Shown one piece after another: positions 659 to 39,409 of a stretch of 55,462 nt of DNA (positions are counted from its first letter, which is position 1; each line of letters begins with the position of its first letter). A program made the position numbers and the translations under genes. The notes under the pieces are model-generated. The model saw only the letters and a list, made by a program, of their open reading frames with translations, made no database searches and was not told the origin of the DNA. This DNA comes from Candidatus Aenigmatarchaeota archaeon (GTDB taxonomy: Archaea > Aenigmatarchaeota > Aenigmatarchaeia > CG10238-14 > SCSR01), in NCBI GenBank assembly GCA_026397385.1, contig JAPLUY010000058.1:1-55462 (forward strand). The letters are read 5' to 3'.

Positions 659-2295
659 CTAGTACTCGGGCATCTCCGAAGGCATCCCGCCCGGTCCGCC
701 GGACATCCCGCCCTTGCCGAGCTTGCTCGCGGATATGATGTCGTCTATGCGCAGTATCATTTCTGCAGCTTCCGATGCTGACTTAATCGCCTGCGTCTTG
801 ACCTTCAGCGGGTCGACGACGCCGAGCTTCGAGACGTCCACGACCCTGCCTTCGTCTATGCCCACGCCGTACACGATCTGTCCCTGCTCGTGCGCCGCAC
901 GCAGCTCGACGAGGATGTCTATCGGATCCAAGCCTGCGTTCTCGGCGAGCGCGCGCGGAATCACTTCCATCGCCTCGCCGAACGCCATTATCTCCAGCTG
1001 CTCGCGGCCCGAGAACTTCTCTGCGAACTTCTTTATGCGCATCGCCACTTCAGCTTCGGGCGCGCCTGCGCCGTACACGATCTTGCCGACTTCCACGGCC
1101 GATGAGACCGCTCCGATCGCGTCCTCGACGCTGCGGTCGACCTCGTCGACGACGTGCTCGGTGCTGCCGCGAACGAGGATGGTGACGGCCTTCGGATCCT
1201 TGCAGTCTCACCGCCGACCTTCTCTTCCTCGACGGTCTTCGCGTAGCCGAGGTCGTTCGCCGACAAATCGTCCAGATTGGTGACGATGCGTCCGCCGGTC
1301 GCCTTCGAAAGCGCTTCCATGTCAGACTGCTTCACGCGTCGCGCGGCCAGTATTCCTTTCTTCGACAGGTAGTGCTGCGCCATGTCGTCGATGCCTTTCT
1401 GCGAGAACAGGACGTTCGCGCCGCTCGCGATCACCTTGTCCACCATGTTCTTGAGCATGCGCTGCTCCTGTTCGACGAACGCCTGCATCTGGTCGGGCGA
1501 TGTTATGCGTATCTGCGCGTCAGTCTCGGTCTCCTTTATTTCGAGCGCGGCGTCGACGAGCGCGATCTTCGCCTCGCTGACCTTCTTCGCCATCGCGGGA
1601 TGCACGACGTCCTTGTCGAGCACGATTCCGCGCACCAGCTCGGTCTCTTCGGCCGAGCCGCCGTGCTTCTTCTCGCGCTTGATGTCCGACGTATCGACCT
1701 CGACGTGGCCGTTCGTCTGGATGGCGACGGTCTTCACCGCCTCCACGACGATGTCGGCCAGGAGCGGAGACGCCTTCTCCATGCTCTTGCCGCTCATGGA
1801 CGTGATCGCTATCTGCTTCAGCACTGCCGTGTCAGCCAACCCGACGGGAATAGATATCTCGTTGAGGATCTTCAACGCCTCGTCGCGCGCAAGCCTGAAC
1901 CCGCGCGTGATGACCGTCGGATGGATTGCCTGGTCTAGCAGCTCGCCGGCCTTCTTCAGAAGTTCGCCTGCGATTACGACGCTCGTCGTGGTTCCGTCGC
2001 CGACTTCCTCGGCCTGCGTCTTCGCGACCTCGACCATCATCTTCGCGGCCGGGTGCTCGATCTCCATCTCCTCGAGGATCGTCACGCCGTCGTTCGTTAT
2101 AACTATATCGCCAATCGAGTCGACGAGCATCTTGTCCATTCCTTTAGGACCAAGAGTGCTCCTTACGGCATCAGCAACGGCCTTCGCCGCAGCGATGTTC
2201 TGTCCCTGCGCGCCCTTGCCCTGCTGCCTGAACGTTCCTTCCGGCAGTATCAGCACGGGCTGCCCGCCAATCTGTCCCATCTGCATGTTAGCCAT
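659..2295 (-). pseudogene. ths: thermosome subunit (group II chaperonin) with reading frame interrupted near 1205-1209
   Basis: The N-terminal part starts at ATG 2295 ([20 protein letters not shown]..., GDGTTT motif) and runs to ...EEEKVGGE. The C-terminal part ([21 protein letters not shown] ... GGMSGGPGGMPSEMPEY, stop at 659) is in another frame. The span 659..2295 is 1637 nt, which is not a multiple of 3. Confidence 0.85.
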
Positions 2296-2360
2296 CAAAC
2301 ATCAACCTCCAGTTTATAGAATCGAAATCGCTCTTCGTTTTAAGACTATGTGTATGTGGG

Positions 2361-2376: not shown

Positions 2377-2431
2377 GGTTGCTTTTAAGTAAATTATTAA
2401 AATTTTAAAAACTCCGAAAGAGAAGGTTAAT

Positions 2432-3037
2432 ATGGTAAGATTGTCTCTTAGAACGCCGATAGAGCGTATGATAGATAAGCTCCTTTTGATTTACCTTTTT
2501 GGCACGCATAAAATTATAGACGACACCAAGGCTCAAAAGACGGTGTTTTTTGCCGAGAACAACATGAATGAAAAAAGAATAAAGGGCTTCAGTTATGATT
2601 TTATTAGATGGAATTTTGGTGAATTTAGCAGAGATTTGGAATCCGACTTAAAAGAATTGAAAAATAAAAACTTCATTACTGATAATTTAATCTTAACGCA
2701 AGACGGTGAAGAAATTCTAAATCAAATTGGGAGCGTCTTACAGAAGAATTCTGAAATTATAAAAAGAATTGATATGTTTGGCAGTTATACGGAATCCAAA
2801 TCTCTTACAGAAGTCAAAGATGTTGCATACACAAAAATTATAGTAAACGGCAAACAAGTAAAAGATTTGCCTATGGGTGAACCTCTATTACATAAATTAG
2901 ACGATTCTGAAGCTAGAATAAACTTTTCAATAGATACTGGGTGGCTTGGAACTTTTGAAGTTTTATTTAATCCGAGAATAAAAGATTCTTTGGATGTCGC
3001 CCTCACTGAAGAGGAATACATTCCATTCGAGGTCTAA
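2432..3037 (+). CDS. Panacea/DUF4065 (SocA-like) domain protein, candidate antitoxin (201 aa)
   Basis: AT-rich ORF with ATG at 2432 preceded by AGAAGG. The segment TKAQKTVFFAE...FSYDFIRWNFGEFSRDL resembles the KLQKLLYFA...W.yGPV core of the Panacea/DUF4065 family. The next ORF starts 10 nt downstream. Assignment is by eye only. Confidence 0.5.
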   Translation: MVRLSLRTPIERMIDKLLLIYLFGTHKIIDDTKAQKTVFFAENNMNEKRIKGFSYDFIRWNFGEFSRDLESDLKELKNKNFITDNLILTQDGEEILNQIGSVLQKNSEIIKRIDMFGSYTESKSLTEVKDVAYTKIIVNGKQVKDLPMGEPLLHKLDDSEARINFSIDTGWLGTFEVLFNPRIKDSLDVALTEEEYIPFEV

Positions 3038-3046
3038 TGATTTTAT

Positions 3047-3436
3047 ATGACTATTCATTTCAGACAACGGAAGAGATTCTCCAAGAATTTTGAAGGATTG
3101 TCTAAAGAAGGAAAGGAAATCCTTACTAAGGAATTGAGAAAATGGAAAATTATGGGCATAGAACATATCAAATATAGATCGAAACATCTGAAAGGGGAGT
3201 ACGCCGGTATTAGAAAAATAAGTTTAGGCAGAATGAGACTCTATTTTTTAATATGCGACGAATGTAGAAAACTTGGAGACGACATAAAATATGGAAGATG
3301 CAAAAAGTGTCCAAGAGAGCCTGATTTGATAAATTTGGTCGATGTCATAGAATTTAGACGTGAAGATACTTATGATAATCTTGATTTCGAAACTGAAGAT
3401 GTAAAAGATTTCACTGACGGAACTTATGAGGTATAG
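3047..3436 (+). CDS. RelE/ParE-like toxin-fold protein with inserted CxxC...CxxC zinc ribbon (129 aa)
   Basis: The motif HLKGEYAGIRKISLGRMRLYFLI ... INLVDVIEFRREDTYD matches the RelE/ParE pattern (LKG..g.yRlRvGdyRiiY ... vl.v.hRkdvY). CDEC-x11-CKKC (nt 3254..3310) is inserted between the strands. Confidence 0.5.
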   Translation: MTIHFRQRKRFSKNFEGLSKEGKEILTKELRKWKIMGIEHIKYRSKHLKGEYAGIRKISLGRMRLYFLICDECRKLGDDIKYGRCKKCPREPDLINLVDVIEFRREDTYDNLDFETEDVKDFTDGTYEV

Positions 3437-3459
3437 TTATCTTTTCTCCGAGTTCCAGA

Positions 3460-3549
3460 TTAATCAAACTCGCCTCCGCAGACGTGAACCCATTGAGCGT
3501 CTAGTACGGCTTCTACTGCTTCCTCGGTAAAGCCTTCCGCAGGAATTGG
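3460..3549 (-). pseudogene. possible 3' remnant of a GC-rich host gene (29 codons, no start)
   Basis: A GC-rich patch inside the AT-rich islet translates on the minus strand to APIPAEGFTEEAVEAVLDAQWVHVCGGEFD*, with host-like GC3 codons. An in-frame TAA lies just upstream, so no start is available. Confidence 0.3.
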
Positions 3550-3716
3550 CGCTTAATTGGATTGGCTTTATTTGGTGTTTTAGAACGTCCATATACGCGC
3601 CAATTGTCGTTTTTAGGAAAAGCACGTGTTATGCGTCTGCTGGCGGATCTGGGGCGTTTACAGAAGTGCAATTTTTAATTGGCTGTTAATTGGACGCGAT
3701 TGGCTGTTATTTGGAT
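3544..3716. repeat. iteron-like direct repeats (four copies of an ~18-nt ATTGGC..TTA.TTGGA unit)
   Basis: The copies are AATTGGCGCTTAATTGGA (3544-3561), ATTGGCTTTATTTGG (3561-3575), AATTGGCTGTTAATTGGA (3677-3694) and GATTGGCTGTTATTTGGA (3698-3715). The last two match at 16/18 positions and start 21 nt apart. They lie in a 370-bp non-coding gap between convergent genes. Confidence 0.6.
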
Positions 3717-3806
3717 GTCATTTTTTGTTGTCGTGCACGTTCGTTTGCATTTAGTATGTCAATTAAGTTTAACACCTTGAAAAGGACAACCGAATTTTGA
3801 TAGGGC

Positions 3807-4739
3807 TCAGTGATTTATCAAAAAATATGTTACAAATTCTACTGCAAATTTAGCATCCGCCACTTGAACATCTTGTTTTGTATTGTTCATTTGAATAATT
3901 CTTTTGAACGCAGAATAATCGATGTAATTCACACCCATACCAAAAATAGAAATTACATCTATTATATTTTTCGTATACTCACTAAATCTATTATTAACCG
4001 AAGAGAGAATTTCATCTTTAACCTTTTGAAGTTCTTCGTTGTCTATACGAGGTTCTGATTTCAATCCCCAGATAGGATCGTAGCTATCTTTTGTACGCCA
4101 AGGGTCTATGCCATAGAGTGGAAACAAACTTCTACCATCCATAGCAGAAGAACCTAATAATTCCATGCCAGATGGTTTATACCCAATTCTTTTCAATTCA
4201 CCTAATCTAGACTCAAAAATTGAGTCCGATATTGTCAGAGCGTCACAAATCTTTCCTTCCTCTAAGAATTTTTCAGATTTTTTAATTTCTGTTTTAAATC
4301 TGTCATCTTTAATTAAATCTGAAAGTGATATGGTGTCAAAATCTATTTCAAAAATAGTTTTAGTTGTTTCTGACAAAAAATTTTTGGTCCACACAAAAGA
4401 TTCATCTACGCTATCTCTAGTTTTTGTTTCTGCCAAATGCTGTATATCATTTCTAAGTTGCCTAACTCTAAGGACTTCTTTTTTCATTGTAAGTGTGTTT
4501 TCATGATTTTTTTCAAGATTTTTGTTTATACAGTCGTAGATATTTTCCATTGTAACAAGTTTGTCGATATCAATCTTAAGATAATCTGAAAGTATTCTTA
4601 AAATAAATTCATTGCATAAATCAAAATGATGTATAGCAAACATATTGTCCAATTTAGTATCATATCTACTATGATTTTTTCCATGTTCAAAAAATAATTT
4701 TAGCAAAATCAATTTTTTGAGAATTAAGTCATCTATCAT
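3807..4739 (-). CDS. HEPN-motif protein, putative RNase of defence/abortive-infection type (310 aa)
   Basis: AT-rich ORF with ATG at 4739. A canonical Rx4H HEPN motif, RNDIQH (aa 96-101, nt 4437..4454), sits in a predicted helical N-terminal domain. The C-terminal ~180 aa are unassigned. Confidence 0.55.
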   Translation of the reverse strand: MIDDLILKKLILLKLFFEHGKNHSRYDTKLDNMFAIHHFDLCNEFILRILSDYLKIDIDKLVTMENIYDCINKNLEKNHENTLTMKKEVLRVRQLRNDIQHLAETKTRDSVDESFVWTKNFLSETTKTIFEIDFDTISLSDLIKDDRFKTEIKKSEKFLEEGKICDALTISDSIFESRLGELKRIGYKPSGMELLGSSAMDGRSLFPLYGIDPWRTKDSYDPIWGLKSEPRIDNEELQKVKDEILSSVNNRFSEYTKNIIDVISIFGMGVNYIDYSAFKRIIQMNNTKQDVQVADAKFAVEFVTYFLINH

Positions 4740-7442: not shown

Positions 7443-8042
7443 ATGAACAGAAGGATTAGGCATGGACAGAGAGGCAGGAATCCGGACGTACACGAAGCGC
7501 ACAATGTACACAACGTGCATAACGCGCATGATATCCGCGGCTCGCACGACCGGCAGGCGAAGAGCGTCAGTGGCGACGAGAGGCAGTTCGTGAAGACGCT
7601 GCACGAGAAGAGCGTCGGCGCTGTCATCTTCAGGCACGTGCGTCTCGGACGCAAGGAGACGGTCGTCTACCTGCTCCTGCACTACCACCTGCACAGCGAC
7701 TACTGGGAGTTCTCGCGCGGCGGCATGGAACCGGGGGAGAACGAGCGGCAGACCGCGGTGCGCGAGATCCGCGAGGAGACCGGGCTGAAGGAGGAGGACC
7801 TGCGTTTTGCAGACGGCTTCCGCACGGCGATACACTACTTCTACATGCTCGACGGGACGCGGCGCTCTAAGGACGCCGTATACTTCCTGGCCGAGTCGAA
7901 GACCGACGCCGTGAAGCTCTCGTCCGAGCACGCCGGTTTCACGTGGGCGGAGTACGACGACGCGGTGAAGAAGGTGACGTACGAGAACGCCAGGCGCGTG
8001 CTCAAGGAGACGCACGACTTCCTCGCTTCAAAAGGCTTTTAA
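7443..8042 (+). CDS. NUDIX hydrolase (199 aa, His-rich N-terminal extension)
   Basis: Nudix box GGMEPGENERQTAVREIREETGL. A TATA-like AAATATAAAAGG lies about 35-40 nt upstream of ATG 7443. An alternative GTG start near 7590 is possible. Confidence 0.85.
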   Translation: MNRRIRHGQRGRNPDVHEAHNVHNVHNAHDIRGSHDRQAKSVSGDERQFVKTLHEKSVGAVIFRHVRLGRKETVVYLLLHYHLHSDYWEFSRGGMEPGENERQTAVREIREETGLKEEDLRFADGFRTAIHYFYMLDGTRRSKDAVYFLAESKTDAVKLSSEHAGFTWAEYDDAVKKVTYENARRVLKETHDFLASKGF

Positions 8043-8065
8043 AACCTGAAGCGCAATTAAGATAC

Positions 8066-8213
8066 GGGCCCATAGCTCAGTTTGGTTAGAGCGCTGGTCT
8101 TATAAGGCCGCTGAGCGTGGGAAGAAACGCATCTGGCGTAAAAACCAGTGGTCACGCGCGTGCGCAGCAATGTGTTCGCGAGCCACAAATGGGTTCGAAT
8201 CCCATTGGGCCCA
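8066..8213 (+). tRNA. tRNA-Ile (anticodon UAU) with two introns
   Basis: Hand fold: acceptor GGGCCCA/TGGGCCC plus A73, D arm GCTC-AGTTTGGTTA-GAGC, anticodon stem CTGGT/ACCAG, loop C-U-UAU-A, T arm ATGGG-TTCGAAT-CCCAT. The gene is 148 nt long. It needs a ~38-nt insert after position 37 and a ~35-nt insert between the anticodon stem and the T stem. It is followed by TTTTTT. Confidence 0.75.
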
Positions 8214-9054
8214 TTTTTTCATTTTTTATGCCAAAACAGCCTATGCCATCCAGAATCCTGATTCTAGTCTCAACATCTGTGCGGATTGGACAAAATCCAA
8301 AATGCTTCCAAATCATGTATTTTGTAATGTGATTCGCGTTCGAGAAACCTATTTTCGACATCCATTTTTCAAGATTCTTTTTTCCATTCAAGTAAATTCC
8401 ATGAATGGTGCGATACTTTCCATACATATTGTCGAATTGCTCCATGTCTGGAACTTCTGTAACTTTGAAGCCGTGTTTTCTTAACATCAAAGAAACCTCT
8501 CTAACAAGCGTCTTATTTGCGAATCCTGCGGAAATGACAGGGTACGTATGCAACTTGGACTTCCTTTTTACCTTGAACGTTAGCGAAAAGTCTGTATCAG
8601 CCAGACCCCTCAGGAACGAATACTGCATTTCGTCAGAAGCCTCTTTTATCAGTTTTGGAATTCTGACTACATTCGTTTTCTTCCCCAAAGGTATGCCCAC
8701 GGTCTTGTTAAGGAAAGAGGCGACTGCTGAAGAAGAAAATGAAAGCCTGATTGAATTTTCTCCTTTAACGTATTTTAGAGTTAAACAAATCCCGTACAGC
8801 TTCTTTTTCAAGGGGATTACAACCTCTTCGTAATAAATTCTGTCTTCGGATGAATGACCATAATATTCTATCTGGTTTCTAGTTTGTCGTCTGTCATGGC
8901 CTCTATGGGCGCAACCATCGCCGACGTGTATACCGATGTCTTCTGACAATTCTCGAGAAAGATATCTAGGAACTGTTATTCCTCTGTTTTTATCCCAATA
9001 ATTGAAAACCACATGCGAATTATCGAGTCTTAATTTCATAAAAATGGTGAGCAA
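8152..9054 (-). CDS. LAGLIDADG-family endonuclease-like protein (free-standing; ~295-300 aa)
   Basis: AT-rich ORF with two LAGLIDADG-type motifs (DIGIHVGDGC and FLRGLADTDFS) and a C-terminal YLNGKKNLEKWMSKIGFSN segment typical of the family. An ATG at 9039 is the probable start. The last ~20 codons are antisense to the tRNA-Ile 3' half. Confidence 0.7.
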   Translation of the reverse strand: MLTIFMKLRLDNSHVVFNYWDKNRGITVPRYLSRELSEDIGIHVGDGCAHRGHDRRQTRNQIEYYGHSSEDRIYYEEVVIPLKKKLYGICLTLKYVKGENSIRLSFSSSAVASFLNKTVGIPLGKKTNVVRIPKLIKEASDEMQYSFLRGLADTDFSLTFKVKRKSKLHTYPVISAGFANKTLVREVSLMLRKHGFKVTEVPDMEQFDNMYGKYRTIHGIYLNGKKNLEKWMSKIGFSNANHITKYMIWKHFGFCPIRTDVETRIRILDGIGCFGIKNEKMGPMGFEPICGSRTHCCARA

Positions 9055-9191
9055 AAACTGAATAAGGCTATGTTGGAAAGGTCGGTTCCGATGAGTAAAT
9101 TTTACATCAAAAACGAAAACTTGAAAATGAAAGAATCGTTAAACAGTCTTGCAGAAGAAACTGCGCGCCCGCTCGAATCGGATGCGCGCCG

Positions 9192-17073: not shown

Positions 17074-20000
17074 TCATTTTATGCTGTCCGCGATATCCTT
17101 GAGGTTCAGGCCGGCGCGCGTGACCTTCGACGGGTCGAGGTTGTCCTCGCCGGGCACGAACTGGACGATGTGCTTGGCGCTGTCGCGCACCGTGCCGTCG
17201 TACTCGACCTTCAGGTCCTGCAGCGCTCCGACGAGCCTGCGTTCCATATAGCCCGAGTGCCTGGTCTTCAGGGATTTGTCCATCAGCGACTCGCGGCTGT
17301 TGATCGCGTCGAAGAAGAACTCGAACGGCGTGAGTCCGTCCTTGAAACCGCGGCCGACGAACCCGCGCGATTCTAGGCTGATGTCGCCGCGCTTGAAGTG
17401 CGGGAACGTGCGATTGAAGTAACCGCGCTCGATACGCTCACCCATGACCATCTCCTGGCCGACCATCGCTGCGGTCTGGACGAGGTTGACGAGGCTTCCA
17501 CGCGAGCCGCTCTTGGCCATCATGAGCGTGAAGCTCTCCTTCGCGTACTTTGCGATGATGTCCTCGACCTCGTCGATCGCCTTGTTCAGGCGCTTCTTGA
17601 TGTGCGCCTCGAGGCTGTCCTTCGCCGTGCGGCCGGGCAGTATCTTGATATCGCCGCGCTCGTATTCTGCGATGAACGCGTCGACGTCCTTCCTGACCTG
17701 GCCGATGGTCTGAGCTATCTCCGTGCGCGCGATCTCCGGCATGTCCTGGTCGGATATGCTGATCGAGAAGGCCGACGTCATCACCATCTGGATGGCCAGG
17801 CGCGTTATGTCGAATATGAACTTCTTCACAATTGTCGGGCCGTAATCCTTCTCAACCTTGTCCAGCACCTTGCCGGTGAACGCGCCTACCGCGGCGCCGT
17901 CTATAGTGCCCTTGAGCAGCTTGCCGTTCTCGATGACCACGTAGGCGTCGTGCTTGCAGTTTGCCTTGATGCAGGTGTCGCATCCCATGCAGGACTTGGC
18001 CTTGTGTTCGATGTTCAGCGTCTTCGGCAGGAAGAGGCTGAAGATTTCCTTTCCGGTCATCGTGCGTTTCGCCGGCAGCTCCATGTCCGTATCAACGGAC
18101 CGTATCATCTGTATGAACTCCTCGCGCTTGAACTCGTGATCGCCGTGCGTCAGCGCATAAAGCCCTGAGACGTAGTCGCGGTGCGCGCCTATGATGGGAC
18201 CGCTGAAGCGCGGGCTGCGTATGTTCTTCTGCACCGCCATGAGCGACCTCGCCTCGGCCTGGGCCTCTTCGGTCTGCGGCACGTGCAGGTTCATCTCGTC
18301 ACCGTCGAAGTCCGCGTTGTAAGGCGGGCACACGGCCACGTTCAGGCGGAACGTGCGGAAAGGCATGACGCGCACGCGGTGAGCCATTATGCTCATCCTG
18401 TGCAGGCTGGGCTGGCGGTTGAAAAGCACTATGTCGCCGTCGTGTATGTGGCGCTCCACTATGAAGCCCGTGTCCAGTTCTGTGGCGATGTCCGTCTTGT
18501 TGAAATCAGTAACCTTCTTCCTGTGGCCGTCCGGGCGTATGACGTAGTTGGCGCCGCCGTTGGTCTCGGAGCCGCTGAGCACTATCGCCTGCAGGTCCGC
18601 CTTGTTGACAGCGTTCACGCGCACCGGCAGCGTCAGTTCCCTGGCGATGCTTTCCGGCACGCCGACCTCGTCGATGTCTATCATCGGGTCAGGGCTGACA
18701 ACGGTGCGCGCGGAGAAGTTGACGCGCTTCCCTGCGAGGTTGCCGCGGAACCTACCCTCCTTGGTCTTCAGCCTCTGAGACAGCGTCTTGAGTATGCGGC
18801 CCGAGCGATGCCTCGCCGGTGGGACGCCCGAGATTTCGTTATCAAAGTAAGTGCTCACGTGGTACTGCAGCAGCTCCCACAGGTCCTCGATGATGAAGTC
18901 TGGCGCGCCGAGGTCTATGTTCTCGCGCAGGCGCTCGTTGATGCGAACGATGTCTACCAGCTTGTGCGTCAGGTCGTCCTCGGAGCGTTCGCCCGTCTCG
19001 AGCGTTATCGACGGCCGGACGGTAACTGGCGAGATCGGCAACAGCGTTATGACCAGCCACTCGGGCCGTATGGTCACGCCGATGGTCTTGAGGTCGTCGT
19101 CCGTCATCTTGGCCAGGCGCTCACGAAGCGCGGCCGCGGTGAGAGTGCCCTTGTCTTCGACGAACGTGTAAGGCTTGATGAACTTGAGCTTCGGCTGCTC
19201 CGAACCGCAGTACGGGCACTTTTTGTGGATGAGCTTCGCCACGTCCTTGATCTTGTACTTCTTCTCCTTCACCGTCTGGATGTCGGCTTCGTCCATAAGC
19301 GCTCGGCTGCAGCTCGCGCAGAAAAGTTTCAACATGCTGAAGAGGAACTTGGCATAATGCACGTGCACGATCGGCCTCGTCATGTCCAGTATGCCGAAGT
19401 GTCCCTGGCACTCGCCAACGCTGCCACCGCACACGCGGCACCGCACGCCCGGGTCGACCACGCCCAACCTGGGATCCATCAGCCCGCCTTCGATCGGATA
19501 GCCTTCCTGGTCATAAAGCTCGGTCTTCGTTATGCGCGCCACGGACATCTTCTTTATCATGTCCGGATTGAGCACGCCGAACTCGATGCGGCTGACGAGC
19601 GCGTCCGACGGGCGGACAACGATCTTCGGATATATCATCATGCTCTTCAGCTCGTCCAGCATCAGCTTGAACGCGTAGCTCATCGAGATGTCCACGACTT
19701 TCGACGCCGTGCATATCGGGCAGTAGCGGCGGTTCTTTATCTTGTCGTAGATCGCTGCGTTACCGCACTCGAGGCATATCGGCACGGTGGTCTTGTCCGA
19801 GTCGAACCTCTCCTTCAGCGTCAGCGCCGCGCCGTGCGCGATCAGGCAGTCCTTCTCCATCTCCCCGAGCCTCAGACCGCCTTCCTTGCTGCGGCCCTCG
19901 GTCGGCTGCTTCGTCAGCAATGCGACAGGCCCGCGCGAGCGCGCGTGTATCTTGTTGGACACCAGATGGTCGAGCTTCTGGTAGAAGCAGCTGCCGATGA

Positions 20001-21438
20001 ATATCTGCGCGTCGAACCGCCTTCCGGTGCGGCCGTCGTACATCGTCTCCTTGCCGTCGTTCTTGTATCCTGCGGCGTGCAGCTCCGAGCGTATCACATC
20101 CTCCTTGATCGCGTTGAACGGAGGGGCGTTGACGATGCGGCCCGCGACCGCGCCCATCTTTCCGCCGATGAACTCGAGCAGCTGCCCCATGGTCATTCGC
20201 GACGGTATGCCGTGAGGGTTGAAAATGACGTCCGGTACGACGCCGTCCTCGGTGAACGGCATGTCCTCGCGCGGGACTATGAGGCCTACGACGCCCTTCT
20301 GCCCGTGGCGGCTGGCGAACTTGTCGCCTATCTCCGGAACCTTCATGTCGCGTATGACGACCTTGATTAGCTTCGTGCCGTCAGTGGTCTCGCTGACGAA
20401 AACGCGGTCGACCACGCCCGTGTCCTCATGGCGGATCTTCACGGAAGTCTCGCGTATGTTCTCTACGCCCGTGATGAACTGGTCCATGGTGCCCAGGAAG
20501 CGCAGCGGCGACACGCGGCCGATCAGGACAGAATCGGAGCCGACGATCGCTTCGGGGTTTATTATGCCGTCCTCGGGCAGGTGCTTGTACATGTCCTCGC
20601 CCGCGTAGCCGCGAACTCCTGGCTCGGGTATGCCGATGATGTCCTCCTGGCCGCCCATGTATCGCTTCTGCTCGGCCTCGTAAGTGCGTGTCATCATGCT
20701 CCAGAACAGCCCGCTTTGGATCGAGCTCTGGTTGATTATAACTGCATCCTCCATGTTGTAGCCGTCGAAACACCCGACCGCAACGATTACGTTCGAGCCG
20801 TTCGGATGGCTGTCGTAGTTTATTATCCTGTGCCCGTGCGTGCGCACCAGCGGCTTCTGGGGATAGACCATTATGTTGGCCTTGGTGTCAACGCGGCTCG
20901 GATAGTTCGTCGCGAAAACTCCTATGCTCTGGCCGACCATCTTCGCTCCGTAGTTGACACGATCGCCACGGTTGTATTCCGTAAAAGGAATGAACGACGC
21001 CGACAGCCCCAGTATGATCGACGGGTCGAGCTCCACGTGCGTGTGATCGGGCATGATATTCTCTGGCTTGAGCGCGATGTACGAGCTTTCCTCCTCGTCC
21101 GTGTCCAGATATTCCACGACGCCGGCCTTTATGAGGTCGGACCAGCTCATCTCGCCCTTCTTTATCTTGGTGGCGATGTCATCGGTCAGCTTCGAGCGGC
21201 CGTTCTCCACGACTATCGCGGGTCTCCTGACCCTGCCCGAATCCGATAAGATGCGTACCTCGCCGAACTGGGGATAGTAGCAGACGTTGACCTGCTCGGA
21301 GAGTTGGCCGCTGCGCCTGTTCCGTTTTATCTCGCTGACCAGACCCGCAAAATCGCCCGTAGCACCGACGTAGTTCCCGTCAAGGAAGACGTCCGTCATT
21401 GCTCCTGTGGCAATTGCATCGTCGGCGTTCTTCGGCAT
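17074..21438 (-). CDS. rpoB1-rpoA1: fused DNA-directed RNA polymerase subunits B' (C-terminal half of Rpo2) and A' (Rpo1N), single 1454-aa ORF
   Basis: The first ~606 aa are RpoB' (ASRHGQKGVVG, Zn ribbon CLECGNAAIYDKIKNRRYCPIC, C-terminal FKLMLDELKSMMIYPKI). The frame continues without a stop into RpoA' (VSRIEFGVLNPDMIKKMSV, CRVCGGSVGECQGHFG, catalytic NADFDGDEMNLH). The junction is at nt 19561..19641. Confidence 0.9.
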   Translation of the reverse strand: MPKNADDAIATGAMTDVFLDGNYVGATGDFAGLVSEIKRNRRSGQLSEQVNVCYYPQFGEVRILSDSGRVRRPAIVVENGRSKLTDDIATKIKKGEMSWSDLIKAGVVEYLDTDEEESSYIALKPENIMPDHTHVELDPSIILGLSASFIPFTEYNRGDRVNYGAKMVGQSIGVFATNYPSRVDTKANIMVYPQKPLVRTHGHRIINYDSHPNGSNVIVAVGCFDGYNMEDAVIINQSSIQSGLFWSMMTRTYEAEQKRYMGGQEDIIGIPEPGVRGYAGEDMYKHLPEDGIINPEAIVGSDSVLIGRVSPLRFLGTMDQFITGVENIRETSVKIRHEDTGVVDRVFVSETTDGTKLIKVVIRDMKVPEIGDKFASRHGQKGVVGLIVPREDMPFTEDGVVPDVIFNPHGIPSRMTMGQLLEFIGGKMGAVAGRIVNAPPFNAIKEDVIRSELHAAGYKNDGKETMYDGRTGRRFDAQIFIGSCFYQKLDHLVSNKIHARSRGPVALLTKQPTEGRSKEGGLRLGEMEKDCLIAHGAALTLKERFDSDKTTVPICLECGNAAIYDKIKNRRYCPICTASKVVDISMSYAFKLMLDELKSMMIYPKIVVRPSDALVSRIEFGVLNPDMIKKMSVARITKTELYDQEGYPIEGGLMDPRLGVVDPGVRCRVCGGSVGECQGHFGILDMTRPIVHVHYAKFLFSMLKLFCASCSRALMDEADIQTVKEKKYKIKDVAKLIHKKCPYCGSEQPKLKFIKPYTFVEDKGTLTAAALRERLAKMTDDDLKTIGVTIRPEWLVITLLPISPVTVRPSITLETGERSEDDLTHKLVDIVRINERLRENIDLGAPDFIIEDLWELLQYHVSTYFDNEISGVPPARHRSGRILKTLSQRLKTKEGRFRGNLAGKRVNFSARTVVSPDPMIDIDEVGVPESIARELTLPVRVNAVNKADLQAIVLSGSETNGGANYVIRPDGHRKKVTDFNKTDIATELDTGFIVERHIHDGDIVLFNRQPSLHRMSIMAHRVRVMPFRTFRLNVAVCPPYNADFDGDEMNLHVPQTEEAQAEARSLMAVQKNIRSPRFSGPIIGAHRDYVSGLYALTHGDHEFKREEFIQMIRSVDTDMELPAKRTMTGKEIFSLFLPKTLNIEHKAKSCMGCDTCIKANCKHDAYVVIENGKLLKGTIDGAAVGAFTGKVLDKVEKDYGPTIVKKFIFDITRLAIQMVMTSAFSISISDQDMPEIARTEIAQTIGQVRKDVDAFIAEYERGDIKILPGRTAKDSLEAHIKKRLNKAIDEVEDIIAKYAKESFTLMMAKSGSRGSLVNLVQTAAMVGQEMVMGERIERGYFNRTFPHFKRGDISLESRGFVGRGFKDGLTPFEFFFDAINSRESLMDKSLKTRHSGYMERRLVGALQDLKVEYDGTVRDSAKHIVQFVPGEDNLDPSKVTRAGLNLKDIADSIK

Positions 21439-23974: not shown

Positions 23975-24114
23975 TCCCGACTCCCGGATTTGAACCGGGA
24001 ACCTGTACCGGCGAGGCATCGCTGCCCGCTACCGGTGGTTGCCGAGCAATTGCTGGCGACAAACGCAGCTGCGCTCGTCTACAGCCGGTTGCTCTACCGT
24101 TGAGCTAAGTCGGG
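23975..24114 (-). tRNA. tRNA-Tyr (anticodon GUA) with one long or two shorter introns
   Basis: Hand fold: acceptor CCCGACT/AGTCGGG plus A73 (the C1-G72 pair is typical of archaeal tRNA-Tyr), D arm GCTC-AACGGTA-GAGC, anticodon stem ACCGG with loop CU-GUA-G, T arm CCCGG-TTCAAAT-CCGGG. The gene is 140 nt, so 66-68 nt must be removed. My preferred parse is 42 nt after position 37 plus 26 nt in the variable-loop region. Confidence 0.75.
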
Positions 24115-31847: not shown

Positions 31848-32471
31848 ATGCCATACGACGATATGGTCGTGCCCGAGAAGGCGATAAAGGAGGCCGCGGG
31901 CATCGTCCGAGCGGGCGGGCTTGTGGTATACCCGACGGAGACCGTGTACGGCATTGGCGCGTGCGCCAGCAACCGAATCGCCGTGCTGAAGGTCTTCGCC
32001 GCGAAGAAGCGGCCGCTCGACAATCCGTTGTCAGTGGCCGTGCACGACATGAAGCAGGCCGACGAGATCGCATACGTGAACGCTGCTGCCCGCAAGCTGG
32101 CCGAGGCGTTCCTACCGGGGCCGCTGACCATCGTGCTGAAGAAGAAAGCACGCCTGCCGGAAGAACTGACTGCAGGTTCGGACAAGGTCGGCATACGCAT
32201 ACCGAGCAACAGCGCAGCGCTCAGACTGATTGAGCTGGCCGGACCTATTACTGCGACCTCGGCTAACATCTCGGGACGGCCGTCGATAACCACGGCGGAC
32301 GAGGCTCGCGAGCAGCTGGACGGACGCGTGGATTTCGTGCTAGACGGCGGTCCCAGCCGCATAGGAGTCGAGTCCACGGTCGTTGACGTGTCAGAGGATG
32401 GCGTCTTCGAGATACTGCGCGACGGGGCGGTGGCACGCGTCGACATAAAGCGAGTCCTCGCGTTAAGGTGA
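31848..32471 (+). CDS. tsaC: L-threonylcarbamoyladenylate synthase (YrdC/Sua5/TsaC family, YrdC domain only)
   Basis: 207 aa. VVYPTETVYGIGA, KKRPLDNPL, GPLTIVL, GIRIPS and TSANISG are typical YrdC-domain motifs. Confidence 0.9.
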   Translation: MPYDDMVVPEKAIKEAAGIVRAGGLVVYPTETVYGIGACASNRIAVLKVFAAKKRPLDNPLSVAVHDMKQADEIAYVNAAARKLAEAFLPGPLTIVLKKKARLPEELTAGSDKVGIRIPSNSAALRLIELAGPITATSANISGRPSITTADEAREQLDGRVDFVLDGGPSRIGVESTVVDVSEDGVFEILRDGAVARVDIKRVLALR

Positions 32472-32496
32472 AAAACCTAACTGTCAATGAAATATT

Positions 32497-33318
32497 ATGA
32501 AATCCTTGAGTCCGATAACCGACGTCGCGCCGACAGGCCGGGCCGAGATAGGCATAATCGGTGGTACGGGCGTTTACGACGACAGTCTGCTGAAGGACAG
32601 GTCCGAGCTCACTCTTGCCACGCCTTTCGGCCATCCGTCCGACAGGATAGTGCTAGGCACGCTCGCAGGAAGACGCATCGCTTTCATCAACAGGCACGGT
32701 CCGCGACATTCAATACCGCCGCACATGGTCAACAGCCGAGCAAACATCTACGCACTGAAGAAACTAGGCGTGACCCGGATACTCGCTACCGGCGCGGTGG
32801 GTTCGCTGAAGGGAGCGTACATGCCGGGTGACGTTGTGCTCGCGGACCAGTTCGTGGATTTCACGAAGACGAGGCAGTACTCCTTCTTCAACCGCGACGG
32901 CGTGTATCACGTCTCGCTCGCGGATCCCTTCTGCCAGGAGCTGCGCATGGCGCTCGAGCGCTCGGCCGTGGCTCTGAAAATGGACGTGACGTGCACCGGA
33001 ACATATGTCTGCATCGAGGGGCCGCGGTTTTCCACGAGGGCGGAAAGCAGGATGTATCGCAATTTCGGAGACATAATCGGCATGACCTTGGTGCCGGAGT
33101 GCCAGCTGGCCCGCGAAGCGGAACTGTGCTATGCGTCGATAAACGCGATAACCGACTATGACGTCTGGGCCGAGAACCCCGTGTCAATGGAGGAGATTTC
33201 TGCGAACATGAAAAAGAGCGCGTGGAAGGTGAAGAGGCTCATCACGGATGTCGTGAGCAACATCCCTCGCGTCCGCGGATGTGAATGCGGCCGTGCCCTG
33301 AAGAACGCCGCGGCATGA
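32497..33318 (+). CDS. mtnP: S-methyl-5'-thioadenosine phosphorylase
   Basis: 273 aa. IGIIGGTGVYD, FINRHGPRH, GPRFSTRAES and GMTLVPE are purine nucleoside phosphorylase/MTAP motifs. Confidence 0.9.
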   Translation: MKSLSPITDVAPTGRAEIGIIGGTGVYDDSLLKDRSELTLATPFGHPSDRIVLGTLAGRRIAFINRHGPRHSIPPHMVNSRANIYALKKLGVTRILATGAVGSLKGAYMPGDVVLADQFVDFTKTRQYSFFNRDGVYHVSLADPFCQELRMALERSAVALKMDVTCTGTYVCIEGPRFSTRAESRMYRNFGDIIGMTLVPECQLAREAELCYASINAITDYDVWAENPVSMEEISANMKKSAWKVKRLITDVVSNIPRVRGCECGRALKNAAA

Positions 33319-33358
33319 GTAAGAAGGCCTTTATTACACTCGCGGCGAAAAACTATTT

Positions 33359-34792
33359 ATGCCGAAAGCATCGATGGACGCCGTCCTTAGGAAAGCGCTG
33401 AAGAAGGTAGTGCCGAAGCCGGCCGAGCGCAAGCGGCTCGAGGCTCTCGCGGCCAAGGCGCTCGAACTCGCAAACAAGGAAGCGCTGAAGCACGACGCCT
33501 ACGCCATAATCGCTGGCAGCCTGACGCGAAACACATGGCTCCCCGGCAAGATGGAGTTCGACCTGTTCATACTTTTCAAGCCGAGCGTGCCGCGCGAGCA
33601 GCTGGAGAAGCTCGGGCTGCGGATGGGCAAGGACATAATGCGCAAGCTGGGCGGACGCGCTGTCACGGAGTACGCCGAGCATCCTTACACCAGCGGGTGC
33701 GTGCGCGGTCTGAACATCGATATCGTGCCGTGTTACGAGCTCGAATCTACCGAGCAGCTGAAGTCATCCGTTGACCGCACGCCGTTCCACGTGCGCTACA
33801 TCGAGAAGCGGCTGCCGCCGGAGCTGTCGAACGACGTACGCCTGCTCAAGCAGTTCTGCACCGCGGCTGGCGTTTACGGAGCGGACGCGAAGACCGAGGG
33901 CTTCTCAGGCTACGTCTGCGAGCTGATGGTCATCCGGTACGGCAAATTCTCAAAGGTGCTCAAGGCCGTGTCGGGCTGGCGGCCGGGCGAAGTGACCGAC
34001 ATCGAGAACTTTTACAACAAGAACGACCACTCCGGGCTGCGTAAGATGTTCAAGCTGAACCCGCTCATACTCATAGACCCCACGGACAAGACGCGAAACA
34101 CCGCGGCTGCCGTCTCGGTGGAGAGCTTCTGCAAGCTCCGCTCGTCTGCTAGGCGGTTCCTCGAGAAGCCATACGCAGCCGCGTTCTTCCCGAAAACTAA
34201 GAAACCGATGCGGCTTAAGGAGCTGAAGGCAGTTATGAAGCGGCGCGAGTCCACGCTAATCGCTGTGAGTTTCCGTCCGCCCGCGATAGTGCCGGACATA
34301 ATGTGGCCGCAGCTGCGCAGGTTCGGCGAGCGGCTGGAATCCATACTGAAGGAGAACGACTTCGACGTGCTGCGGCGCGGGGTGTATACGGACTGCGGCA
34401 CGCTGGCTGTAGTGCTGATAGAGATGGAGAGCCGCACGCTGCCGCGCGTGCGCAAGCGTGTGGGGCCGAGCGTGTTCGACGAGGACGGCACTAAAGGGTT
34501 CGCGAAGAAGTACAAAGGTGCCGCGATAAACGGCCCGTTCGTCGAGGACGGGTTCTGGGTTGTGGAAGTCGAGCGTCAGTTCCGCACGGCCGAGGACAAA
34601 ATCTCTGACAGCCTCGGCGACCCGTTGAAGGAACTGGACGCGAAGGGCATCCCAAGCCATGTGGCGAAGGCGATCGCTTCCCGCGGGCTCGGAGTGACGT
34701 CCGATCTGAAGAAGGTAGACCTGCTGGCCGAGAGGAAGAAGGAGTTCGGCGTGTTCCTGCGCGAGTACTTCGAGAAGGAGGACGTAGCCTGA
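33359..34792 (+). CDS. cca: CCA-adding enzyme (archaeal class I tRNA nucleotidyltransferase)
   Basis: 477 aa. IAGSLTRNTWLPGKMEFDLFILF carries the nucleotidyltransferase G[SG] and DxD-type motifs, and DRTPFHVRYI is also present. Length is typical of archaeal cca. Confidence 0.92.
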   Translation: MPKASMDAVLRKALKKVVPKPAERKRLEALAAKALELANKEALKHDAYAIIAGSLTRNTWLPGKMEFDLFILFKPSVPREQLEKLGLRMGKDIMRKLGGRAVTEYAEHPYTSGCVRGLNIDIVPCYELESTEQLKSSVDRTPFHVRYIEKRLPPELSNDVRLLKQFCTAAGVYGADAKTEGFSGYVCELMVIRYGKFSKVLKAVSGWRPGEVTDIENFYNKNDHSGLRKMFKLNPLILIDPTDKTRNTAAAVSVESFCKLRSSARRFLEKPYAAAFFPKTKKPMRLKELKAVMKRRESTLIAVSFRPPAIVPDIMWPQLRRFGERLESILKENDFDVLRRGVYTDCGTLAVVLIEMESRTLPRVRKRVGPSVFDEDGTKGFAKKYKGAAINGPFVEDGFWVVEVERQFRTAEDKISDSLGDPLKELDAKGIPSHVAKAIASRGLGVTSDLKKVDLLAERKKEFGVFLREYFEKEDVA

Positions 34793-34804
34793 TTGGTGTT
34801 TTCA

Positions 34805-35722
34805 ATGATAGACGTAACTTTCCTCGGCACAGTTTCGGGCATCCCGAGCCTCGACCGCAACCATCCGGCCATAGTGCTCGAGTACTCCTCAGACGAGCGG
34901 CACTTCTTCCTTTTCGACTGTGGCGAGGGCACGCAGAAGCACCTGATGCGCGCCGGCATAAGCTTCATGAAGCTGCAGAAGATATTCATCTCGCACTGGC
35001 ACGCCGACCACTTCTCCGGCCTGATACCTCTGATACAGACCATGAACCTGGAGAAGCGCAGTGAGGAGCTGCAGATATACGGGCCTGAGGCCGAGCGCTT
35101 CGTCTCGAACATACTCGACCTCGGATACTTCGGGCTGCGGTTCCCAGTGGCAGCGATGAACGTGCCTTTCAGTGGCGAGGAGCCTACGCTCGTCGACAAC
35201 AACCCCGAGTACGAGATCTGGTCTATTCCCGTCTTCCACACCGTGCCGAGCGTCGCGTACATGTTCAAGGAGAAGGACAGGCTGAACATCAACCTCGAAA
35301 AGATCAAGGAGCTCGGGCTTAAGCGCGGCACGTGGATGAAGAAGCTGAAGGCGGACGGCGTCGCGACTGTAGGCGGGAAGAAGATCAAGATCGAGGACGT
35401 TTCCGACGTTAAGCTTGGACTGCGTGTGGTTTACTCTGGCGACACGAAACCGTGCGCGAACGTCGTCAAGCTAGCGAAGGGCGCGGACCTGCTGATACAC
35501 GATGGCACGTTCCTTGAGGAGGACGAGGGGAAGGCGCATGCGGACGTGAGGCAGGCGGCGAAGGTCGCGGCGGACGCGGGCGTGAAGCAGCTGATACTCA
35601 CGCACCTGAGCCGCCGATACTCGACGAAGGAGGACATACAGGAGATTGAAGCGGCCGCGCGCAAGATATTCCCGAACACGAAGGTCGCGTACGACTTCAT
35701 GAAAGTGAAATTAAAAAATTAG
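34805..35722 (+). CDS. rnz: ribonuclease Z (tRNA 3' endonuclease)
   Basis: MIDVTFLGT..., metallo-beta-lactamase motif HWHADH and C-terminal LTHLS. ATG at 34805 (the ORF-track start at 34793 is a TTG directly after the cca stop). Confidence 0.92.
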   Translation: MIDVTFLGTVSGIPSLDRNHPAIVLEYSSDERHFFLFDCGEGTQKHLMRAGISFMKLQKIFISHWHADHFSGLIPLIQTMNLEKRSEELQIYGPEAERFVSNILDLGYFGLRFPVAAMNVPFSGEEPTLVDNNPEYEIWSIPVFHTVPSVAYMFKEKDRLNINLEKIKELGLKRGTWMKKLKADGVATVGGKKIKIEDVSDVKLGLRVVYSGDTKPCANVVKLAKGADLLIHDGTFLEEDEGKAHADVRQAAKVAADAGVKQLILTHLSRRYSTKEDIQEIEAAARKIFPNTKVAYDFMKVKLKN

Positions 35723-35752
35723 AAACTCATGATACATTGTCAGGTATTTTAA

Positions 35753-36154
35753 ATGAGCTTATTCCAGCGAGACCTTGTAATTTGCAATTTGTGTAAAAAA
35801 CCAATTAGACTCACCGAAGGCGTACAAAAACACATAAAAAACGAAAAATTCTTAGATTCTCATCTTTTTGAAACAGTTATTGCACGAGGGCGAGATAATG
35901 AAATTTTGCATACAGTCGTCTATCGTGGAAATCCTATGTTTTTTCATAACAGTTGTTTTGACATTGTTGGTAAACATACCGACAAAAATGCAAATTTAGT
36001 TAAAACCAAAACAGATGGTTCGAAGAGTATATTTTTCGAGTCGGCTGACGGTATTGCGAAAAGATATTGGAATTTTATCAAATACTACGATGACAAAAAA
36101 ATAAACTACATAGAGGAACGTGAGAAGAAAATCAAGAAAGTGTTAAAAGGATAA
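35753..36154 (+). CDS. hypothetical protein in AT-rich islet (133 aa; CxxC ... HxxC)
   Basis: Strongly AT-rich ORF between rnz and two tRNA-Arg genes. CNLC (aa 11-14) and HNSC form a possible small zinc-binding site. No family recognised. Confidence 0.5.
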   Translation: MSLFQRDLVICNLCKKPIRLTEGVQKHIKNEKFLDSHLFETVIARGRDNEILHTVVYRGNPMFFHNSCFDIVGKHTDKNANLVKTKTDGSKSIFFESADGIAKRYWNFIKYYDDKKINYIEEREKKIKKVLKG

Positions 36155-36176
36155 ACATCAAATAACGACTTTGTAA

Positions 36177-36250
36177 TGCGCCCACTGGGATTCGAACCCA
36201 GGTCCACGGCTCCGGAAGCCATCATTCTATCCAAGCTAAACTATGGGCGC
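36177..36250 (-). tRNA. tRNA-Arg (anticodon CCG)
   Basis: The reverse complement is GCGCCCATAGTTTAGCTTGGATAGAATGATGGCTTCCGGAGCCGTGGACCTGGGTTCGAATCCCAGTGGGCGCA. Anticodon loop TTCCGGA. Confidence 0.9.
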
Positions 36251-36257
36251 CTAGGAG

Positions 36258-36345
36258 TGCCCCCAATGGGATTCGAACCCATGTCAATAGCTCCGCAAGC
36301 TATTGTCCTATCCAAGCTAGACTTTCCTCATGATGTTATGAGGGC
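36258..36345 (-). tRNA. tRNA-Arg (anticodon GCG) with a short non-canonical intron between acceptor stem and D arm
   Basis: The 3' part is canonical: D arm GTCT-AGCTTGGATA-GGAC, anticodon arm ATAGC-TTGCGGA-GCTAT, T arm ATGGG-TTCGAAT-CCCAT, and TGGGGGC plus A. The matching 5' acceptor strand GCCCTCA-TA lies 14 nt upstream of the D arm, giving intron ACATCATGAGGAAA at position 9/10. A second GCCCTCA copy at 36351-36357 allows an alternative 5' end. Confidence 0.7.
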
Positions 36346-36493
36346 TTACCTGAGGGCAAAATTTATTCATCCTTTCTAACTTATAAGGGTGCCTGCATGA
36401 TATTAACCTGCAGGTCTTTGCAAGGCAATTTTATAAAACCTTTTATTCGTATTTAAATAATCTATCTCAAGTAATTGTACGAAGGTGTAACAT

Positions 36494-36652
36494 ATGAACT
36501 GCACGAGCTGCAACATGCACACGACGTCCGCGAGCAACTTCACCAAGTTCAAGTGCCCGAAGTGCGGCGCCAGCGAGATAATCCGCTGCAAGACGTGCAG
36601 GGACAACAGCGTGCTCTACAAGTGCGAGAAATGCGGGTTCGAGGGGCCGTAG
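36494..36652 (+). CDS. small zinc-ribbon protein (COG2888-like) preceding EF-1beta (52 aa)
   Basis: Not in the ORF track. MNCTSCNMHTTSASNFTKFKCPKCGASEIIRCKTCRDNSVLYKCEKCGFEGP* has several CxxC pairs. Pairing with aEF-1beta is conserved in archaea. Confidence 0.7.
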   Translation: MNCTSCNMHTTSASNFTKFKCPKCGASEIIRCKTCRDNSVLYKCEKCGFEGP

Positions 36653-36682
36653 GCCTGGTTTTCGTTTTACTGAGTGATCGGA

Positions 36683-36940
36683 ATGTCCGGAGTGATAGCG
36701 ACCTTCAAAGTGATGCCAACCGGCATCGATGTCAACCTCGACCTGCTAGAGGCTAAGGTCAGGGAGACGGTCGGCGCGGACCAGGTAAAGCGCGAGCCGA
36801 TCGCGTTCGGGCTGGTGGCGCTGATAGTGGCCAAGGTCATACCTGACGAGGCCGGCTTCATCGACAAGATGGAGGAACTTCTGCGCGGCATCGAGGGCGT
36901 CGGCGAGGTCGAGACGGTAGAAGTCACGAAGGCGCTCTAG
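36683..36940 (+). CDS. ef1b: translation elongation factor EF-1beta (aEF1B)
   Basis: MSGVIATFKVMPTGIDVNLDLLEAKV...IAFGLVALIV...VEV is typical aEF-1beta, about 85 aa. ATG at 36683. Confidence 0.9.
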   Translation: MSGVIATFKVMPTGIDVNLDLLEAKVRETVGADQVKREPIAFGLVALIVAKVIPDEAGFIDKMEELLRGIEGVGEVETVEVTKAL

Positions 36941-37972
36941 TTACACGAGGCCATTCTCTAACTTGTCCTGAGTGTTTAGCTTTTCTTTCAACACCGCTTT
37001 CAGCGCGTCTATGTTCGCGGTCTTGTCGGGACTTTTGCCTTCTTGTTTCGCGAGGTAATAGGTCAGCAAGTCGGCGAGGAATAACAGCGACATCTCCTTC
37101 GCGAGCGGCGACCTGCCCAAGGACCAAAGCTCGACCACGCCTTTGACCTTGCCGCGTATCAGTTCCTTGGTCGCCTCTATGCGCTCGCGCACGGCCGGAT
37201 GCTCGTCCGCGTCGCGTAGGAGCAGCACGTAGTTACCCGTGTTCACGTCGTTGTCTTCGTAGCCGACGATTTCGTTGTGGTCCATCTCTGGGAACACGTC
37301 CCAGCTCGCCGGGAGCTTGCTGTTCTCGTTTATCTGGTTCTTGACCCGTCGCGCCGCGGCCTCGAAGGCCTCTCCGGCGTACACGCTTATGCGGCATCCT
37401 GCCATCAGCCCCGCAAGCGCTGTCATCTCGCTGTCTTTCTGCCGGTCCTCGCGAAGGTCGGTGAGTACCTTTACAGTCTCGTCAATGTCCGCTGTCAGGT
37501 CGAGCTTTCCGCATTCGCGCAGGTACTCGAGTATCGTGAACAACGAGTAAGGCAGGGTCGCGCGCGGTTTGAACCCCGCGGGCAGCTCGACAAAGGGCAC
37601 GCCGAAGCGCACGGCCCATCCTTTCAGCCTGCCGCCGGATGACACGATCATCGTGCGCAGCCCGCGTCGCCTGGCCTCGGCGAACTGGCTGAGCGTCTCC
37701 TCGGTTTCGCCCGAGTAGCTGGAGAACATCACCAGCGTATCGCCGCGGACGTACGGTGGCAACGCGTACCGCCGCGATATCTCGATCTGCAGCGGTATGC
37801 CATAATTGCGCATCACGTCGGCGGCGATGTCACCGCCTACCGCGGAGCCGCCCATGCCGCAGACCAACAACCTGTCAAACTTGAGGGATGGCAGCCACGA
37901 CTTCTTCGTCGCCTCGATTGCATCGAGCACCATCTCGGGATACTTGCGTATGTAGCCTAGCATGTCGTCCAT
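36941..37972 (-). CDS. bifunctional phosphoglucose/phosphomannose isomerase (SIS domain)
   Basis: 343 aa. LLVCGMGGSAVGGD and FSSYSGETEET SIS motifs, with the length and architecture of archaeal PGI/PMI. Confidence 0.8.
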   Translation of the reverse strand: MDDMLGYIRKYPEMVLDAIEATKKSWLPSLKFDRLLVCGMGGSAVGGDIAADVMRNYGIPLQIEISRRYALPPYVRGDTLVMFSSYSGETEETLSQFAEARRRGLRTMIVSSGGRLKGWAVRFGVPFVELPAGFKPRATLPYSLFTILEYLRECGKLDLTADIDETVKVLTDLREDRQKDSEMTALAGLMAGCRISVYAGEAFEAAARRVKNQINENSKLPASWDVFPEMDHNEIVGYEDNDVNTGNYVLLLRDADEHPAVRERIEATKELIRGKVKGVVELWSLGRSPLAKEMSLLFLADLLTYYLAKQEGKSPDKTANIDALKAVLKEKLNTQDKLENGLV

Positions 37973-37987
37973 ACGATGTCACAACCG

Positions 37988-38542: not shown

Positions 38543-38562
38543 GTGGGTCACCTTGCAGTGAT

Positions 38563-38901: not shown

Positions 38902-39013
38902 GCTTATGCACCAGTTGCGCGTTTTTTCCGCGCTTTTCCTTACCAGTTATTGCCCTAATTATCTATTGAAGCTATCCTTTTAAAAAGATTCTCAACGGAT
39001 GGCCGGTCAAGCT

Positions 39014-39298: not shown

Positions 39299-39409
39299 CA
39301 CAATCGCCTGCAGTTTTCGCTTCTCTATAATTCAATGGTTTAGTTCTTAAAGGTTCGATTTGGCCCGGATAGGATTTGATTAGCACGGTTATGTTTAAAT
39401 TATCCAATC

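Follow-up and report, generated by a model that had tools for sequence, protein, structure and literature searches.

A tRNA-Ile gene with a UAU anticodon and two introns in an Aenigmatarchaeota archaeon, and a natural allele that lacks the second intron

We describe a locus at positions 8066-8213 of a 55,462-nt stretch of DNA from a Candidatus Aenigmatarchaeota archaeon (the whole stretch is referred to here as the window). Sequence comparison shows it to be a genuine tRNA-Ile gene of archaeal type, with UAU as its encoded anticodon and with two introns. The gene is very probably functional, in that its product would be spliced from a precursor and would decode AUA. Genes for tRNA-Ile(UAU) have been known in DPANN archaea since 2011, and the locus is a further example of these. 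What it adds is an intron-less allele that is exact to the base, evidence that closely related lineages have lost and gained introns, and an outlying use of AUA.

The Rfam tRNA model (RF00005) matches the locus end to end on the plus strand with 50.5 bits (E 6e-8), against a gathering score of 29 and with model positions 1-71 covered, which places it in the tRNA family. Two large inserts stand out in the alignment: the anticodon loop is extended by 39 nt, and another 37 nt precede the T stem. We parsed exons and introns by hand (gene position i corresponds to window position 8065+i) and found that the 75 nt which remain once 8106-8143 (38 nt) and 8154-8188 (35 nt) are taken out form a perfect cloverleaf with the anticodon UAU (Table 1). 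ARAGORN in normal mode makes no call on the raw gene, and reports the spliced 75-mer as a perfect tRNA-Ile(tat) cloverleaf. The sequence-only reading had proposed a tRNA-Ile with a UAU anticodon and two inserts of about 38 and 35 nt; the identity, both sizes and both positions are borne out by these results. In its acceptor stem (GGGCCCA), its A73 and its D arm the gene resembles archaeal tRNA-Ile. CCA is not encoded at the 3′ end; exon 3 ends with the discriminator A73. Two runs of the source study, on freshwater sediment, provide independent Logan contigs that agree with the window at every base over 7600-8573 and beyond, and the locus sequence is thus not an assembly artefact.

Table 1. Features of the tRNA-Ile(UAU) locus and related genes in the window
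Feature	Positions	Strand	Evidence or remark
Archaeal promoter: purine-rich BRE-like AAAAGG, then TATA-like CTTTTAAAA	8030-8045	+	Read in sequence
Exon 1: acceptor 5′ strand, D arm, CTGGT stem, loop CTTATAA	8066-8105	+	Rfam, ARAGORN (spliced), relatives
Anticodon TAT	8101-8103	+	Within exon 1 loop CTTATAA
Intron 1, 38 nt, anticodon loop	8106-8143	+	Hand fold, energy evaluation, relatives
Exon 2: ACCAG (anticodon stem 3′ strand) and variable loop TGGTC, positions 39-48	8144-8153	+	Rfam, ARAGORN, relatives
Intron 2, 35 nt, between positions 48 and 49	8154-8188	+	Local fold, intron-less allele, seven relatives
Exon 3: T arm ATGGG TTCGAAT CCCAT, acceptor 3′ strand TGGGCCC, A73	8189-8213	+	Rfam, ARAGORN, relatives
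Oligo-T terminator-like runs TTTTTTCATTTTTT	8214-8228	+	Read in sequence
tRNA-Tyr(GUA)	23975-24114	minus	Insert of about 69 nt at the anticodon loop or 3′ of it
CCA-adding enzyme	33359-34792		
tRNA-Arg(GCG)	36265-36325	minus	Rfam match to model positions 7-64 only; 5′ acceptor strand displaced

A strict bulge-helix-bulge (BHB) motif has two 3-nt bulges on opposite strands with a 4-bp helix between them, and cleavage occurs after the second base of each bulge. Intron 2 has this geometry. Its outer helix pairs 8145-8147 with 8190-8192 (C8145-A8147 with U8190-G8192), its central 4-bp helix pairs 8148-8151 with 8183-8186 (GUGG/CCAC), and its inner helix, which carries an apical hairpin, pairs 8155-8160 with 8177-8182; the bulges are U8152 C8153 A8154 on the 5′ side and A8187-A8189 on the 3′ side. 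Both the outer and the central helix, together with the AAA bulge, appear in the local minimum-energy fold, and the 5′ bulge can form opposite the AAA bulge, ahead of the inner helix and hairpin. The predicted cuts, C8153/A8154 and A8188/A8189, correspond to tRNA positions 48/49 and coincide with the ends of the segment missing from the natural intron-less allele described below. The BHB conformer competes with the normal stems: it takes 4 nt from the anticodon stem and 3 nt from the T stem.

The motif at intron 1 is looser. Its 5′ cut lies within a clean 3-nt bulge (A8104 A8105 G8106, cleaved as A A/G), the central 4-bp helix pairs 8100-8103 with 8138-8141 (UUAU/GUAA), so that U33-U36 are paired, and an inner 4-bp helix pairs 8107-8110 with 8134-8137. 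The 3′ cut, however, falls in an asymmetric 1x2 or 2x3 internal loop (A8142-A8144 opposite C8099) and not in a strict 3-nt bulge. As modelled, this is a relaxed BHB shifted by one base from the textbook 37/38 register: the intron lies at 37/38 by its product and at 38/39 by the geometry of the motif, and the same shifted geometry is found in Aenigmatarchaeota-labelled loci. Because a run of A's spans the boundary, every splice register gives the same loop, CUUAUAA, which has 7 nt, U33, A37 and the anticodon UAU. Only one register gives a bulge-helix motif; earlier ones, with the cuts one or two bases upstream, gave no helix, and would in any case leave the product unchanged. A box C/D guide RNA inside intron 1 was looked for by eye and rejected, with CUGA the only element seen and the C box absent. 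The search of sequencing runs found the locus in no RNA run; in the single run of uncertain type, the contig, which comes from a relative, is unspliced and DNA-like.

The boundaries of intron 2 were fixed by a natural allele. Contigs in two runs (X5 and X7) from two independent studies represent a closer relative, which is 92.7% identical to the window over 7916-8065 and has the same acceptor sequence, GGGCCCA. Its allele reads, segment by segment, GGGCCCATAGCTCAGTTTGGTTAGAGCGCTG / ACAGAAGTTTGAAGCAAACTCTGACGCAT / GTCTTATAA / GGCAGCTGAGCGTTTACGCCTCTGCGTAAAA / ACCAGTGGTC / ATGGGTTCGAATCCCATTGGGCCCA, the base after CAT/G having been inferred. Exactly 8154-8188 are missing, 8153 is joined to 8189, and the variable loop has the normal 5 nt. 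The CTTATAA loop and intron 1 are retained, with one inner-helix pair of the intron changed from C-G to A-U, and a different insert of 29 nt is found at tRNA positions 29/30, which folds by hand as a BHB with one C·A mismatch. This pattern points to recent intron loss and gain as well as delimiting intron 2, and it agrees with the earlier proposal that one of the two introns lies outside the anticodon loop.

The same allele bears on whether 8154-8188 is an intron at all. When folded, the 35-nt insert gives a stem-loop beginning within the variable region, and it could in principle be retained unspliced as an oversized extra (variable) arm. We regard this as very improbable, since the insert is missing to the base from the nearest relative, which has a 5-nt variable loop; since its length varies (23 versus 35 nt) and only the flanks that form the motif are fixed; and since two 3-nt bulges 4 bp apart are what the splicing enzyme requires. 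Moreover, we know of no tRNA-Ile with a 40-nt variable region. Excision of the insert as a second intron is the reading we follow from here on.

We next consider conservation in more distant relatives. A metagenome scan for the intron-1 type GGCNG...GCGTRRAA, which is common to loci titled Aenigmatarchaeota, returned 22 loci, seven of which are syntenic with the window (L063, L064, L065, L074, L075, L076 and L082) and share the gene order chaperonin ... NUDIX, tRNA, EF-1alpha, EF-2. Identity to the window is 75-80% just upstream of the gene and 70-89% across neighbouring stretches. All exon bases are nevertheless kept, with the single exception of C5-G68, replaced by U5-A68 in a compensatory change of the acceptor stem; the CUUAUAA loop is the same in all seven, as it is in the closer relative. 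Both inserts occupy identical sites in 7/7. Intron 1 is nearly invariant over its 38 nt. Intron 2 has 13 variable positions among its 35 and differs in length (35 nt, or 23 nt in L082), with its flanks GTC/ACG...GCCACAA/ATGGG fixed. In a covariation test on the seven sequences two pairs changed on both sides, a count reached by 90 of 500 shuffles and hence not significant.

The signals that flank the gene are conserved as well. The TATA-like element is centred about 25 nt ahead of the 5′ end of the tRNA. The promoter sequence AAAGGCTTTTAAAAC does not differ in any of the seven syntenic relatives, whose DNA around it shares only 75-80% identity with the window, and T-runs are present behind the gene in every relative. 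These observations weigh heavily against a decaying or non-functional tRNA-like sequence. The silence of ARAGORN on the raw sequence and a foreign AT-rich ORF that runs antisense into the 3′ end of the gene would fit such a pseudogene, but the exons are invariant apart from the compensatory stem change even though the flanks of the relatives have diverged by 20-25%, the promoter and terminator are conserved, and AUA is the commonest Ile codon. A pseudogene is strongly disfavoured, and we consider it the most improbable of the readings weighed here; a functional gene remains our interpretation.

All seven of the more distant relatives have the 48/49 intron and none has the 29/30 insert. The simplest history, as reconstructed from these sequences, would therefore be that the lineage of the closer relative lost the 48/49 intron precisely and gained the one at 29/30. 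Copies of intron 1, intron 2 and the 29/30 intron were sought in the window and in 83 loci, and nothing similar was found. Heterogeneity of tRNA introns has precedents in Caldiarchaeum (PMC3293823) and Thermoproteales (PMC4090602). Within the sample compared, the 48/49 intron is confined to the clade of the window, with the reservation that the spliced aligner is crude, splits intron 1 in divergent lineages and gives only approximate position labels outside the clade.

The DNA around the gene has some further features. An AT-rich islet (8228-9105) lies directly 3′ of the tRNA, where three relatives (L074, L076 and L065) have only 34-110 nt. Its single ORF (8152-9054, minus strand) extends antisense into the 3′ exon and intron 2 of the tRNA gene and matches LAGLIDADG_3 weakly (E 0.009, below threshold). 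Neither att-like direct repeats nor repeats of the tRNA 3′ end were found around the islet, the sole repeat there being a 13-nt inverted pair of a T-run and an A-run. A second AT-rich block, at 2381-4739, has a GC3 of 0.23-0.33 and three ORFs without a family match; L063 has about 440 nt in its place, and the block is a lineage-specific insertion. The thermosome (Cpn60/TCP-1) gene at 659-2298 (minus strand) consists of two overlapping ORFs, 1033-2298 covering profile positions 1-323 and 659-1096 covering positions 368-489; a frameshift could explain the split, as could an error in sequencing or a short intervening sequence. At 17074-21438 (minus strand) a single ORF of 1454 aa joins Rpb2 domains 4-7 to Rpb1 domains 1-5, which makes it an RpoB′-RpoA′ fusion.

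Codon usage in the window shows how much a tRNA for AUA would have to do. In 31 host-type genes, with third positions about 80% G+C (GC3 ~0.8), ATA is the commonest Ile codon (384 of 809, or 47%, and 30 per 1000 codons), followed by ATC (345) and ATT (80). The other A-ending codons each make up 2-24% of their family, and of all codons that end in A, ATA alone accounts for 27%. EF-1alpha has twelve ATA codons, and its solved homologues have I, L, V or M at the positions aligned with them, one of which is the conserved Ile of IDAPGH; this identifies AUA as a sense codon for isoleucine. Since AUA makes up 47% of Ile codons while other A-ending codons are rare, an efficient AUA decoder is needed, and the suggestion of the sequence-only reading that AUA is read directly by the UAU tRNA is plausible in view of this very heavy use.

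In the pathway we propose, transcription from the gene's own TATA/BRE promoter would give a precursor about 148 nt long. Cuts by the tRNA splicing endonuclease at the two BHB-type motifs would remove the 38-nt intron that pairs with U33-U36 and the 35-nt intron at 48/49, and the three exons would be joined by an RtcB-type ligase. Processing by RNase P, RNase Z and the CCA-adding enzyme would give the finished 75-nt tRNA plus CCA, and the mature tRNA, presumably charged by IleRS, would read AUA, the most used Ile codon here. The window encodes Sua5 (for t6A37 synthesis), the CCA-adding enzyme, RNase Z and Pus10. Genes for Sua5/YrdC and the latter three form a loose tRNA-maturation cluster at 31848-40690 that adjoins two tRNA-Arg genes. 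No EndA gene is present in the 55-kb window. Multi-intron tRNAs of DPANN archaea have been linked to endonucleases with extra loops that broaden specificity (Kaneta et al. 2018, PMC5829648). As the sequence-only reading had noted, other tRNA genes of the window are disrupted too, namely tRNA-Tyr and tRNA-Arg(GCG) (Table 1), and these would count as further tRNA genes of the genome with non-canonical or multiple introns.

The UAU tRNA most likely replaces the agmatidine (TiaS) system in this organism. It could instead be functional but redundant, an extra AUA decoder beside TiaS and tRNA-Ile2(CAU), and very heavy use of AUA could indeed favour two decoders. We think this unlikely. The 8 tRNAs and about 45 genes checked in the 55-kb window include neither a CAU tRNA nor a TiaS-like protein, and in the archaea examined for it a UAU tRNA-Ile goes together with loss of both: Fujishima et al. 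(2011) found tRNA-Ile(UAU) without CAU-Ile2 and without TiaS in ARMAN-2, -4 and -5 (PMC3239211), and the same association is seen in Nanoarchaeum and Korarchaeum (PMC6000648). Replacement of the agmatidine system, with TiaS and CAU-Ile2 probably both absent from the genome, is the interpretation we favour.

A different role can be imagined for intron 1. The intron that pairs with the anticodon might be kept so that the anticodon is modified before splicing, in a way that stops U34 from reading AUG, with the second intron a mobile passenger; we give this proposal only a small chance. Intron 1 may hold U34-U36 in a helix for the modification enzyme, and the anticodon-pairing intron would be kept in almost every DPANN tRNA-Ile(UAU) because it is needed before splicing. 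The passenger intron, for its part, would be lost and gained within about 7% sequence divergence. A parallel is the intron-dependent pseudouridylation of yeast tRNA-Ile(UAU), the gene for which always contains an intron that is needed for the pseudouridines at 34 and 36.

We also surveyed the distribution of tRNA-Ile(UAU) genes. A scan of one genome per species, this genome not among them, with a pattern that fixes only the 5′ exon returned 61 loci, none of them syntenic with the window. About 35 belong to DPANN archaea (Woese-, Micr-, Iain-, Aenigmat-, Alti- and Nanoarchaeota). An intron in the anticodon loop is present in nearly all of these, and a further one in the T loop is present in many. 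CPR bacteria account for about 25 loci, which are intron-free. In other Aenigmatarchaeota-type lineages (L005, L036, L039, L067 and L078) the tRNA-Ile(UAU) gene carries a second, T-loop insert of about 120-155 nt, and the tRNA-Ile genes of L068, L069, L071 and L073 apparently have inserts in the D arm. The sequence-only reading had taken a genomic UAU to be limited to a few lineages such as Nanoarchaeum and Korarchaeum, and a 2018 survey of 167 mostly cultivated genomes did find it in these two only (PMC6000648). Given the ARMAN report of 2011 (PMC3239211) and the roughly 35 DPANN loci, that premise is outdated.

Among the known systems, the genes of ARMAN-2, -4 and -5 are the most similar in that they too belong to DPANN archaea, encode UAU in the genome, have a loop intron that pairs with the anticodon, and are accompanied by other tRNAs with non-canonical introns. 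The ARMAN-2 gene, however, has one intron of 25 nt with a strict hBHBh′ motif at 37/38, whereas here intron 1 has 38 nt, a relaxed 3′ site and a shift of one base, and a second intron, which ARMAN-2 lacks, is found at 48/49. The intron-bearing ARMAN-2 precursor was spliced in vitro by its epsilon2 endonuclease (PMC3239211), while splicing of the present gene is predicted from its sequence. Nanoarchaeum equitans and Korarchaeum cryptofilum also use a UAU anticodon for AUA, and the Korarchaeum gene is likewise intron-bearing (PMC6000648), but they belong to other phyla, their lack of TiaS is documented where that of the present genome is presumed, and a second intron at 48/49 has not been described for them. 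Several non-canonical BHB introns per gene, and presence or absence of introns that varies among close relatives, are known from Thermoproteales and from tRNA-Thr of Caldiarchaeum subterraneum (PMC4090602; PMC3293823), which differ in being TACK archaea. The intron sites given in a 2014 review (20/21, 22/23, 25/26, 29/30, 30/31, 45/46, 53/54, 56/57, 59/60, etc.) include 29/30, and 48/49 is not listed (PMC4090602). The same anticodon solution for AUA is found in Mycoplasma mobile and in eukaryotes (PMC3575796); the Mycoplasma mobile tRNA-Ile(UAU) is bacterial and has no intron, and the eukaryotic system belongs to another domain.

Collectively, our results add a well-documented case to the view that agmatidine is commonly dispensed with in DPANN archaea, where a plain UAU tRNA reads AUA. 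Standard tRNA finders under-count the tRNAs of such genomes, and where an AUA decoder seems to be missing it is likely to be a hidden multi-intron gene. With an intron at 48/49 in eight lineages that is absent to the base from the nearest relative, this one gene also provides a natural experiment on the turnover of tRNA introns.
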